Shown here piece by piece: positions 677 through 63,003 of a stretch of 64,000 nt of DNA; the stretch's first letter is position 1, and each line of letters starts with the position of its first letter. The stretch is from Octopus vulgaris (lineage: Eukaryota). The stretch lies in the NCBI GenBank assembly GCA_951406725.2, contig OX597836.1, forward strand, positions 4,278,001 to 4,342,000, given 5' to 3'. The notes under the pieces are model-generated. The model was not told the DNA's origin. It searched no databases and was given only the letters and a program-made list of their open reading frames with translations. A program made the position numbers and the translations under genes.

Positions 677-787
677 CATTATTCAGTTATATTCCAAGAT
701 TTCTTGCCAACGGAGAAAGAACCGGTTTCTAACCTAGATCCAAGGCTTCTTCATTGGAATTTCTGCATCAACACCAGGGTAGTTTTG
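677..787 (-). mobile_element. Short Penelope-type terminal element with degenerate hammerhead motif, inserted in (GTAT)n
   Basis: Minus strand reads gaaatt-CCAATGA-agaagcct tggatct aggtta-GAAA-ccgg-TT-ctttc; stem III AACCGGTT is palindromic; flanked by TATG/CATG microsatellite. Confidence 0.45.
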
Positions 788-958
788 CATGTATGTATAT
801 CTCTAGGTATGCGTACAGAATTGTATGTTTTGTTTCATGTATACATTCTCATGCATATAATTGCATATCGAGACAGGCTCATATATATTTAAATGATAAA
901 CTTCCGAAAGTTTTACTGACATTTATAAAATTTTGCTGAGCTTATCTACCATACCTAA

Positions 959-1445
959 AGTATATATATATATATATATATATATATATATATATATATA
1001 TATATATATATATATATATGCATATATATATATATGTATATATACATATATATGTATGTATATATATATATATATATATATATATATATATATATATATA
1101 TAATGTAGGATAAAATTTTTTCGAAAAAATTATTTTATCAATGGCCAGCATATTAAAAAGTACCTTTAAAGGTTTAATTATAAACAACTTATAAATAAGG
1201 GCAAACGAAAAGATTAGAATTTTTTTCCGTTTATAATTTGTATATATATATATATATATATATATATATATAGAGAGAGAGAGAGAGAGAGAGATAGATA
1301 GATAGATAGATAGATTGATAGATAGATAGATAGATAGATAGATAGATAGATAGATAGATAGATAGATAGGTAGATAGATAGATAGATAGATAGATAGATA
1401 GATAGATAGATAGATAGATAGATAGATAGATAGATAGATAGATAA
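959..1445. repeat. Compound (TA)n/(GA)n/(GATA)n microsatellite with a ~140 bp AT-rich insert at 1101-1240
   Basis: Direct reading; representative of dozens of similar arrays throughout the window. Confidence 0.95.
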
Positions 1446-2438
1446 AGACAAAACTTATTCAGAAGATAAGTAGAAATGTACATGAATATTGATATTTATA
1501 CATATAGAGCCAAAAGCACAATGGAGTAGAGCATAAACACTGCACAAGAGTAACGAGGCGAATCTTCGTACCTGCAAGTTTGGAATTACGTAATGATTGT
1601 AATGTTAATAATCAGCAAAAGTGAGATATTACAGTTTGACCGGCTTCCTTCATCAAGAGAAAGAATTGACAATAATGGTTCACAATGTAGTGTGAGAGAT
1701 TTAGGGAGGATGAAGAGAAGGACCAAAATGCATAAAATGCAGGGAGCTACAGGATGTAAGAGGTTCGGAGAGGGAACGTAGGGAGTGGAGAAGGAGTTAG
1801 AATAAATACAATACATGCATGCATATGTATATGAATATAAGTAGATATACACATACATACATACACAGGCGCGCGCACACACAGAGGCTACCAGTCACAC
1901 ACACACACATCCTCAGATATGTAAACACATACATATATATATATACACACACATGTATTTGAATACTTGTATGAATTACAAATAAATACTAATTAAGACA
2001 ATATATAAATAATCATGAAAATATATTTCCGTAAGTATGCGCAATTACACATATGTGCGTGCCTGAGAATATATACTAAAAAATATATATATATATATAT
2101 TAATATTATTACTACATATGTGTATGCGTATATGTCTGTGTCTGTTTGCATCTGTCTAGCCATCTATCTATCTATCTATCAATCTATCTATCTATCTATC
2201 ATTCTATCTATCTATCTATCTATCTATCTATCTATCTATCTATCTATCTATCTATCTATCTATCTATCTATCTATTTATCTATCTATATATATATATATA
2301 TATATATATATATATATATATATATATGTGAATATAATCAAAAAAGGGTAATAACATAGATTATTACCAGTGGCCCAGCACAGAAGACGAATTAGTCATT
2401 AGACAAAATATTATATATATATATATATATATATGCGT

Positions 2439-2538
2439 CAAATGAAATCAAAAAAGAAAGGATGTCGCGGTACACGTTTATAAAGCTTGAAACACGTGTA
2501 CCGCGACATTCTTTGTGTTCTGTTTTTGATATCATTTG
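2439..2538. repeat. Imperfect inverted repeat containing the 3' half of a hammerhead motif
   Basis: caaatgaaatcaaaaa...atgtcgcggtacacgt versus acgtgtaccgcgacat...tttttgatatcatttg; GAAACACGTGTA at 2489-2500. Confidence 0.8.
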
Positions 2539-5048
2539 GTACATATACCCTCTCACCTCTGCTACTAGCTGGCGTATACAGTTGCTTATACTTACCAAGT
2601 ATTCACCCTAAATTTATATATATATATATATATATATATATATATATACGCACATGCATGTCTATACGTGCATGTGTTCAAAGGTAAGTCCTTATATGTC
2701 TGTGTGTGTGCATCTAATCTACTTACTTCGTTTTAGAACTACTAGGACCTACAAGCGGAGTGTCTGGTTGATTTAGATCGTGCAAATCCTACTGAGCAGA
2801 AGGCAAATGGTGCGAAAGTTCCGATTTCCTAATGAAGGAAAAATTCCACAAAAACACATCTGAAATGCAACAAATGGTTCTTTTTTGTCCTACATCTCTA
2901 ATCATTTCCATAGATGCATACACACATATGTAGATATATACACACACATGCATATATACATACACACGCACACATCAATATGCATATATATGTATACATA
3001 CGTACATATATATATATGTATATATATAAATATATATGAATATATATTATATATATATACAGATATATAACAAATATGAAATAATACATATTCATATATA
3101 TATATATGTATATATATATATAGACATATACGTACACATCTGTGAATATATACATATATATATGTATATATATATATGTATATATATACATATATATACA
3201 TACGTATACATATATGTACATGTACACACATTTGTATGAATATATATGTTACATAGTGTGCACAGTATATATTTATATTGCACGTAGATATAGTACTGGA
3301 TAGATATATTCATATATGTATGTATATATATATATATATATATATATATATATATATATATATATATATATATGTAGATATATATCATTGAATGAAAATC
3401 TCAACTTCTCCCTCTATTTTTCCTTTTCTCTCTTTTCATATATATATATATATACATACATACTCGTGTGTATACGTGTGTGTATGTTTATGTGCACGTG
3501 CGTGTATGCGTGTATACCTATTGAATATTACTTCGATATATCCATATGTACAGAATGTTAAAAAAGTGGGTAATAAAATATCATTTATTCTATGCCGTAT
3601 TTGAATAGATTAAAATAGCGATAAATGCATCGCGATTGTGGCAGATACTTTTTGGTTTAAAAAAAATATGAGTAAACATTTCTATGGATAATAAATTAAA
3701 GAAACGTTGAACGATACCGTGAAGAAAATTTACGACAAAATTGAAACTTCAATGACAATAACTTTTTTATTAATATCATATACGAGTAGTGTATACAATA
3801 AACGAATGCATATACATGCATATATATATATATATATATATATACATATTGTATGTATGAGTGGATATATACATGTATCTATCTATATCTATCTATCTAT
3901 CTATATATATATACATATATAAATGTATATATTCACAGATGTGTACGTATATGTCTATATATAATGTATATATATATATATGTATGTATGTATATATATA
4001 TATATGTATATATATATATATATATATATGTAGCTATATATGTATATATATATTTCTTTAAGTGTATATATGCATGTATCTCTATATATAAACATTTATA
4101 TACATATATATATATATAATTATATATATATATATTTATATTTATATATATATATATATATATATATATATATATATATATATACATACACATATATATG
4201 TTGCGTGTGTTTGTACCTGTGCGTGTATGTGTCTCTGTGCGTGTGCGTGTGTAGTGAAAGGCACAGCAATGGTTCCTCGGCGTTTTTGAGACTATGCTAC
4301 TGCATACTTTAGCATGATATAAACGACATCAACCACAGGTTCTGGAATCGTTGCACCACATTACGAAACCGATTTTTAACCACAAACTGACGAACACGAT
4401 AGTCGGTTCACCTTACGGTAATCCTCGTCTTGGTGAGATCGTCTTCAACGCATGACTCCTGTATCGCGAGTAATATCTGTATACGGAGAAAGGCTAAAAC
4501 ATTTTTGATGCAGAATATCTGAGGCTTTTTACACATATCGTGGTTCGTAAATATATCAAAAGCTTGATCTTTGGTGATGCTTACAACATATATATAATGC
4601 ATGTATGCCTAGCACACACTCGCGCACACACGTATATTTATATGTATGTATACATACATGCATATGTAGATATATGTATGTATATATACGTATATGTATA
4701 TATGTGTATATAAACATGTATATATATATGTAAATATATGTATATATACTTATATTTACATATATATATGTATATATATATTTATTTGTGTATATATATA
4801 TTATGTATGTATATATATACATATATACACCCATACATTTATATATACATATATTATATATATATATATATATATATATAATAAGTATATATATACAGGG
4901 AGAATATATATATATATATATATATATATATATATATATATATATATATATATATATATATGCATATATATATATTTGACTTAACGCGATGATTGTAAAT
5001 GATTCAGAGGAAAAGTGACGCTTTCAGATATCAATTTTCCGCGAAAAC

Positions 5049-62144: not shown

Positions 62145-62435
62145 GTTGCGTTACCAACCTTGTCTCCACTCTTTTGCCTTTAAAAACCCACTTTGCTCTT
62201 GTTATCGTAAACATCCGCCTTTCACCATGTGCTACTCCTAACACCAGCCGTTTTTTTCTCTATCTCCGTTGCCCGCTCCGGGATCTTTCTTTCCTCTCTC
62301 TTCCTTCTTTATGTTTCCGACGAAGAGCTCCGCTCGAAACGTCATACCTCCCTGCTTCCATTTCCTGAGCGCCTATTAATAATAATACTGTAATTGTTCC
62401 CTTGTTGTTGTTTTTTTGTTTCCCGTTTGGATTAA
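62145..62435 (+). mobile_element. Family F-related hammerhead-bearing element
   Basis: Pyrimidine tract, hammerhead-like motif, then ttcctgagcgc as in the 11405 and 62793 copies; between (CA)n and (TA)n. Confidence 0.6.
62313..62347 (+). ncRNA. Minimal type-I hammerhead-like motif, variant core CCGACGA
   Basis: gttt-CCGACGA-a-gagc tcc gctc-GAAA-cg-TC-atac; GUC triplet; one mismatch in stem I. Confidence 0.55.
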
Positions 62436-62525
62436 AATATATATATATATATATATATATATATATATATATATATATATATATATATATATATATATAT
62501 ATATATATATGTATGTATGTAAAAA

Positions 62526-62752
62526 GGCGGCAAGCTGGCAGAAACGTTAACACGCCGGGCGAATTGCGTAGCCGTATTTCGTCTGTTGTTACGTTCCGAG
62601 TTCAAATTCCATCGAGGTCAACTTTGCCTTTCATCCTTTCGGGGTCGATAAATTAAGTACCAGTTACGCACTGGGGTCGATGTAATCGATTTAATACCTT
62701 TGTCTGTCCTTGTTTGTCCCCTCTGTGTTTAGCCCCTTGTGGATAGTAAAGA
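62526..62752 (+). mobile_element. SINE family A, well preserved
   Basis: ggcggcaagctggcagaaacgtt...gagttcaaatt...gcctttcatcctttcggggtcgataaattaagtaccag...gccccttgtgg. Confidence 0.92.
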
Positions 62753-62792
62753 TGTATGTATGTATGTATGTATGTATGTATGTATGTATGTA

Positions 62793-63003
62793 TAACGGGC
62801 AGGTTTACTAAAATAAACAAAAGACGAAGTCAGGTGGAGTACGATCAAACAATTGTATTAGTATGGCGCTCAGGAATAGAAATAAAACAAGTCTTTTACG
62901 TTTCGAGCCTATGCTCTTCAACAGAAAGATACACAGAAAAGAAACTCAGAGAGAAACAAGGAGAGAAAAAATTGCGTGCAGGAGCTAACGATTCAACATG
63001 GCG
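62793..63003 (-). mobile_element. Family F hammerhead-bearing element
   Basis: Homologous to 11405-11592 and 34262-34356. Confidence 0.8.
62892..62929 (-). ncRNA. Minimal type-I hammerhead-like motif, variant core CUGUUGA
   Basis: Minus strand tcttt-CTGTTGA-a-gagc atag gctc-GAAA-cg-TA-aaaga; stems I and II pair perfectly. Confidence 0.62.

Follow-up and report, generated by a model that had tools for sequence, protein, structure and literature searches.

Hammerhead motifs at the ends of Penelope-like elements in Octopus vulgaris: an altered core in the dominant family and copies that probably derive from uncut RNA

Elements in the window and their abundance

The stretch of Octopus vulgaris DNA analysed here (64 kb of contig OX597836.1, hereafter the window, by which the whole stretch is meant) comes from a genome of 2.8 Gb in 227 contigs, and short tandem repeats make up 24% of it. 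A preliminary description had listed in it eleven motifs of type-I hammerhead ribozymes, carried by short elements embedded in microsatellites and likened to the pseudo-long terminal repeats (pLTRs) of Penelope-like elements (PLEs). All eleven stretches are present at the positions listed. Homology searches sorted them into families A (sites 11465 and 62892), A' (62313), B (16356), C (714), D (12721), E (33135), F (50775 and 51635) and G (2489), with no family for site 5049; ten of the eleven thus lie in genome-wide repeat families and nine in families that bear a hammerhead, whereas 714 and 5049 failed as hammerheads. Only two sites are both complete and canonical, 16356(-) of family B and 33135 of family E. 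Three are complete with a core altered at the level of the family, namely 11465 and 62892(-), which read CUGU-N-GA with U instead of A at core position 6 (A6U), and 62313, which reads CCGACGA with C instead of U at position 4 (U4C). Two more (50775 and 51635) are decayed copies of the canonical family F, and the last two are half motifs left by 5' truncation or inversion: 2489 holds the 3' half only of the family G motif and 12721 has the halves of the family D motif on opposite strands (Table 1).

Table 1. Elements and motif-like stretches in the window (ORF, open reading frame)
Position	Strand	Assignment	Hammerhead and remarks
62794..63003	(-)	Family A solo pLTR, Neptune-type PLE by motif layout, youngest subfamily	5' end at the common CGCCATG boundary
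62892-62929	(-)	Hammerhead inside the family A copy 62794..63003	A6U core CUGUUGA; stem I UCUUU/AAAGA, stem II GAGC/GCUC, stem III ACGU
11402..11590	(+)	Family A solo pLTR, older subfamily	Hammerhead 11465-11500, A6U core CUGUGGA
34253..34355	(-)	Family A 3' stub without hammerhead	Begins ~9 nt past the predicted cut site; absent from the preliminary list
62256..62434	(+)	Family A' pLTR (sister clade)	Hammerhead 62313-62347, U4C core CCGACGA; 3' end approximate
16331..16517	(-)	Family B element with inverted copy of its own tail	Canonical hammerhead 16356-16401
32960..33365	(+)	Family E, partial monomer of 546-bp tandem non-LTR retrozyme (assigned from sequence)	Canonical core 33135-33186, stem III ACGUACGU; ends approximate
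50732..50874	(+)	Family F copy	Decayed core: CAGACGA, GAAA lost
51378..51856	(+)	Family F copy	Hammerhead 51635-51678, boxes canonical, stem I broken
50853..51362	(-)	Broken Neptune ORF piece, family A type (linker and Zn-knuckle)	Internal 194-bp duplication; 71% protein identity to L193
2430..2612	(+)	Family G, 5'-truncated, inverted piece 2430-2497	Keeps GAAA, stem III and the 3' stem I strand; hammerhead type with long stem II
12722..12866	(+)	Family D, 5'-inverted	Hammerhead 5' half (CCGAUGA) on the minus strand at 12722-12748, 3' half on the plus strand
667..778	(-)	Family C, ~110 bp inside (TACA)n	GAAA and palindrome only; consensus without CUGANGA box; not a hammerhead
5049..5095	(+)	Motif-like stretch, unsupported	GCAA in place of GAAA

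Several candidates were rejected. Site 714(-) belongs to a family (~8 copies per Mb) whose consensus reads CCAAUGA and lacks a proper stem I, and in either register family C fails at two core positions and in stem I. For site 5049, no relative was found in a genome search, which can miss such copies, nor in 1.5 Mb of loci. The direct repeats 50775 and 51635 enclose an ORF fragment but are not its pLTRs, since this fragment is antisense and of the family A ORF type. A sequence search of the PDB gave no match, and an Rfam scan with 872 matches gave no hammerhead among the 150 listed, which were all simple-repeat matches to microRNA models.

The frequency of the motifs was compared with dinucleotide-shuffled sequence using a strict descriptor that left position 6 free and required a palindromic stem III of at least 4 nt; it misses families E, F and G because it allows no extra base before GAAA. 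The motifs were well above shuffled sequence: three in the window versus none in each of 60 local shuffles, and 19 in a random 1 Mb, made of 100 evenly spaced 10-kb stretches, versus 0, 0, 1, 0 and 0 in five shuffles. Counted by homology with family profiles, the random Mb holds ~80 copies, partial ones included, which extrapolates to ~2e5 genome-wide, again with partial copies. This is ~1 per 12 kb, and the window is about twofold richer. The microsatellite setting was confirmed, since 19 of 22 random copies of the A6U family end in a TA/CA-type repeat, compared with 12% of random places.

Families A and A': Penelope-like elements with an altered core

Sites 11465, 62313 and 62892 had been described as having unrelated stems; they form a single superfamily. 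By motif layout, compared with that given by Craig et al. 2021 (10.1101/2021.04.23.441226), we assign them to the 3' ends (pLTRs) of Neptune-type PLEs, each followed by (TA)n. In that account, the Neptune layout is a reverse transcriptase (RT) followed by a C-terminal GIY-YIG domain preceded by a CX2-5CxxC linker. Three of the 30 family A loci (L002, L010 and L030) run on for 1.5 kb in the 5' direction into an ORF, and the ORFs linked to family A are single, with RT motifs, a CxxxxCxxC linker before GIY-YIG (CSRPRCRTC, CSRSRCNTC) and GIY-YIG at the C-terminus. A related ORF at L199 gave weak Pfam matches to RVT_1 and GIY-YIG, both below the cut-off, and its protein has homologues; its atlas neighbours combine RVT_1, HTH_animal and GIY-YIG at 0.97. 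Family A' copies lie 734 bp past an ORF of the RT/GIY-YIG type. The 3' end of family A is fixed ~95 nt beyond the predicted cut site, with (TA)n next, and every extended family A copy seen was 5'-truncated. With the endonuclease-bearing (EN+) Neptune PLEs these elements share the RT/GIY-YIG order, the linker, the microsatellite bias, 5' truncation and inversion; a common 5' end of solo pLTRs is a feature of family A and does not appear in the available text of the Neptune account.

These assignments bear on a view that extends the several non-autonomous families of the preliminary description, namely that all the short elements are independent, non-autonomous families, comparable with short interspersed elements (SINEs) and copied by PLE proteins in trans. 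Non-autonomy holds for family E, a non-coding 546-bp tandem unit, and ~2 Mb of loci contained no ORF partner for B, C, D, F or G, although 2 Mb is less than 0.1% of the genome and partners of these families could be missed; moreover, a promoter is likely present in solo pLTRs, which could be copied again. It does not hold for A and A', which are the pLTR ends of coding PLEs, and the same subfamilies of A contain both short copies and copies with the ORF. As an explanation for all the elements, we regard it as very improbable.

Family A is the largest family. Its exact A6U motif occurs in 18,928 copies genome-wide, with 0 for the reversed control, and the A6 form with an identical stem II in 5,118. 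The A' motifs number 7,718, with C4 in 72 of the first 100 listed, and C4 recurs in 6 of the 12 readable copies of family D. A tree of 85 copies separates a U6 clade from an A6/C4 clade. For the former, 53 copies were kept of 64 matches, 11 short or weak ones being dropped; position 6 is U in 50 of these 53, across successive subfamilies, and N7 differs between subfamilies (U, C, G or A), H17 alternates between A and U and the stems remain paired. Within the 37-nt motif, 17 lineage-level changes were counted, eight of them at N7 and H17 (P ~1e-6, or 5e-4 with loop II counted as free) and none at C3, G5, G8, A9, G12, A13, A14 or U16.1. In 19 distinct rows of A and A', 96.7% of the cells of stems I and II are paired; stem covariation was found at one place, the outer stem I pair, which is C-G in A but has switched in A', where G-C and G-U are found. 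Contigs of four runs, presumed to be RNA and labelled organisms A-D, reach a difference of at least 3% inside the motif only at N7, at H17 and at a single base of loop II for which the reference itself is atypical; as the same core pattern is found in the contigs of the four organisms, the A6U lineage likely predates their split.

Across the families, the box C3-U4-G5-A6-N7-G8-A9 is present in B, E, F, G and part of A' and D, and is absent from A (U6), from the C4 subfamilies and from C, whereas G12-A13-A14, A15.1-U16.1 and H17 are found in A, A', B, D, E, F and G and are lacking at 5049. The stems are wholly different between families, yet paired. The palindromic stem III is not predicted to fold on itself, and the duplexes predicted between copies range from -1.7 to -10.3 kcal/mol.

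This pattern has to be weighed against the idea that the family A motif no longer cleaves and is retained as a protein-binding fold, a promoter element or a splice acceptor. Such a view would fit the recurrence of core substitutions at the level of families (A6U in A, U4C in A' and D, a dead core in C), the finding that cleavage is dispensable for insertion in vitro (PMC11167929), and the long pyrimidine tract that ends just before the motif, with a CTAAC-like word upstream; there is also a parallel in the intron of the D. virilis Penelope, whose end lies at helix I (PMC4209133). However, the positions that remain unchanged in the U6 clade, together with the restriction of H17 to A or U, are those required for catalysis, and the contigs of the four runs that cover the element show no splice joint and a single weak joint of any kind, although such contigs are weak evidence on this point. 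We therefore consider the loss of cleavage improbable.

Regarding the activity that may be left, A6C reduces hammerhead cleavage in Mg2+ and U4C reduces cleavage in vitro (PMC7151607, PMC3088659). By analogy, the A6U ribozyme of family A is likely weakened rather than lost. Folding of the monomer, for the three U6 variants with N7 other than A, predicted pairing between the core strand and the stem III strand with P 0.45-0.98, versus 0.1 for A6; a locked monomer was rejected as a general explanation, as it holds for U6 but fails for the C4 variant. Taken together, the lower cleavage with A6C and U4C, the predicted pairing of the U6 core with stem III and the retention of the catalytic guanines and the stems lead to the model that we find rather probable, a weakened ribozyme that would depend on dimers and on protein and would act on templates that mostly stay uncut.

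Copy ends and the template of reverse transcription

If the template were cut by the ribozyme, reverse transcription starting from the 3' boundary would yield copies that stop at the site and are ~95 bp long. We read by eye the 5' ends of 22 random family A copies: two lie far upstream, 11 within ~20 nt of a CGCCATG boundary situated ~100 nt upstream of the cut site, seven between boundary and site and two past the site. The cut site is thus contained in 20 of the 22 copies, and none begins at it; for the distribution of these ends, P is ~1e-6 versus uniform truncation. Genome-wide, eight loci join (TA)3 within -9..+4 of the cut site versus 175 (one strand) at the CGCCATG boundary, a rough ratio, the two patterns covering overlapping but not identical subfamilies. 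Given this common 5' end upstream of the site and the near absence of copies that start at it, the inserted family A copies likely come from uncut RNA. We infer that the CGCCATG boundary is the transcription start, and PLE start sites have been located in the pLTR (review PMC6765202). The copy ends match the behaviour of the anole PLE, in which reverse transcription begins at an internal point downstream of the hammerhead, insertion in vitro persists in catalytic mutants, cleavage requires protein and no RNA-seq reads end at the cut site (PMC11167929).

The preliminary description was right about the existence of several families of minimal type-I hammerheads with palindromic stem III and about their link to PLEs, and so had correctly spotted a known system. 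It had overcounted the motifs, left the A6U and U4C changes unrecognised and oversold the system as an abundant, actively self-cleaving one, a claim that finds no support in the 9 canonical cores among 37 readable ones of the A superfamily (random Mb) and in copies that span the cut site.

Copies that span the site would also arise if the A6U ribozyme were fully functional as a dimer, unit-length RNA being cut and religated to a circle and RT reading across the junction. Changes in the motif are found mainly at N7 and H17, which are permitted in an active hammerhead, the circle model has been proposed for PLEs (PMC4209133) and shown for retrozymes (PMC7229834), and family E makes tandem arrays. 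Yet a circle has no 5' end, whereas half of the family A copies have a common one, and the sampled copies are nearly all single; in addition, the U6 monomer is predicted to have its core strand paired with that of stem III, and changes of A6 weaken known hammerheads. Full activity as a dimer thus appears unlikely, though less so than the loss of cleavage considered above.

We rather favour, with some reserve, the view that the short elements are PLE pLTR ends and non-coding derivatives lying in simple repeats, and that the dominant family spreads from uncut RNA, its hammerhead being predicted to be weakened by A6U. The PLE protein would nick (TA)n and prime reverse transcription internally at the 3' boundary, as in the anole PLE in vitro. 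Priming at the first pLTR of the transcript would run off at the RNA 5' end, the likely start site, and leave a solo pLTR of ~200 bp, and priming at a downstream pLTR would produce longer, variably truncated copies. Stem III would form only as a dimer, and the ribozyme would be slow and protein-assisted, so most templates would remain uncut. Selection would retain the fold and the catalytic G8 and G12, and weaker U-turn bases (A6U, U4C) would be tolerated. Family E would operate as an ordinary tandem retrozyme.

Several observations weigh against this view, besides the roughness of the joint ratio given above. The effect of A6U is extrapolated from A6C. Stem II is invariant in A and A' and contributes no covariation, and the shuffle control for pairing ignores relatedness. 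The 3' flank of the motif has conserved blocks too (38 of its 90 columns change, compared with 7 of the 35 motif columns not counted as free; P 0.02), so that the ribozyme is not the only part under constraint. Among the first 100 copies of the oldest subfamily, 86 have U at position 6, 8 have C and 6 have A, and fixation is incomplete there. No intact pLTR-ORF-pLTR copy occurs among the loci examined. Two of the 22 random copies (+6, +32) and the stub in the window begin 6-32 nt past the cut site, and a religated circular template would likewise give site-spanning copies.

A stronger version, which we put forward tentatively, is that the most successful PLE lineage of this genome fixed the A6U core as a selected brake: the monomer would be folded shut, and the uncut RNA would have given rise to tens of thousands of solo pLTRs of ~200 bp. 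The repeated changes in the U-turn (A6U once, U4C twice) might then reflect selection on PLEs for a weak, protein-gated ribozyme and not for an efficient self-cleaving one.

The 5' boundary of family A, as at 11405-11425 (+) and 62983-63003 (-), also contains a four-codon micro-ORF, ATG-NNN-GAY/AAT-CGY-stop, in a GCCATG context. It is kept across subfamilies, with TAG, TAA or TGA as the stop, and its bases could alternatively be a branch point (CTAAC) before the pyrimidine tract.

Relation to known systems and other repeats

Minimal hammerheads in PLEs have been described as mass single, truncated copies with inverted pairs and weak activity as dimers (Cervera & De la Peña 2014, PMC4209133). 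The octopus elements have in common with them a short stem I, the extra base after the first box, the palindromic stem III and the location in the pLTR (see also the review PMC6765202), as well as thousands of mostly single copies, inverted pairs and many unrelated families per genome. They differ in the dominant family, which has U at core position 6 where the core variant of that study is U3-A8, and in copy number, 2,000-9,000 there being set against the extrapolated ~2e5 here. In the searchable part of its supplement, CUGU and CCGA occur only outside the core and there is no octopus entry. A6C in phage Bcep176 and U4C in a viroid (PMC3088659, PMC7151607) change the same U-turn positions and keep the rest of the core, but these are rare single cases, unlike A6U and U4C here, which mark lineages of thousands of copies. 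An octopus repeat annotation lists Penelope families, and its main text, as far as available, does not mention ribozymes (PMC13282606). Hammerheads at PLE ends (PMC4209133) and tandem retrozymes (PMC7229834) have already been published; the A6U core shared by a whole lineage and the pattern of copy ends appear to be new.

Lünse 2017 is said to comprise about 150,000 hammerhead variants; it and one Cervera supplement file lay outside our literature search and may hold A6U, and the search itself found no A6U hammerhead.

The literature on PLE hammerheads reports low activity and no need for cleavage in vitro, and the A6U core and the copy-end pattern make their role testable. Sister lineages that differ at single core positions (A6/U6, U4/C4), with thousands of copies each, constitute a natural experiment, in which the ends of the copies preserve a record of the RNA that served as template. 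About 3/4 of the A superfamily is missed by descriptors that require CUGANGA, and hammerhead counts in animal genomes may therefore be underestimates.

Family E consists of tandem arrays with a period of 546 bp in which adjacent units are identical, each unit having one type-I hammerhead and a longest ATG-ORF of 49 aa; from its sequence we classify it as a non-LTR retrozyme. Like the known non-LTR retrozymes (PMC7229834; Li et al. 2026, 10.64898/2026.07.22.740005), it is non-coding, low in GC and tandem with dispersed monomers. It differs from them in its unit length, 546 bp versus typically ~300, and in the occurrence of arrays in inverted pairs. Such arrays, with minus-strand units facing plus-strand units, lie at G000:C15:17861924-17865282 (L269-L273).

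Families B, D and G frequently carry inverted pieces, a PLE habit. A link of family B to a PLE ORF in L047 was rejected, the neighbour being a different PLE with its own hammerhead. This other Neptune-type family (L047 and L142:4400-6340 (-)) has a hammerhead with stem I GAAC/GUUC, and its core position 4 is C in the L047 copy and U in the L142 copy. Further unrelated canonical type-I hammerheads, with a palindromic stem III of 6-8 nt, occur in the random sample at L121, L145, L103 and L178, outside the families analysed.

Other repeats in the window include a non-LTR retrotransposon 3' end at 17538-18330 (+), between (AAT)n runs, with a zinc knuckle, a motif of the restriction-like endonuclease type and a weak Pfam zf-RVT match; we take it to resemble Dong/R4 elements. 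An interspersed repeat of ~170-230 bp without a hammerhead, likely a SINE, is present in at least nine copies (13444-13614, 29390-29840, 39695-39924, 44165-44589, 45082-45297, 52217-52500, 57209-57423 and 62521-62751). A second repeat family, of ~150 bp and ending in (TA)n, is found at 8158-8297, 9595-9769, 12532-12675, 21901-22077, 23917-24077 and 57998-58120.

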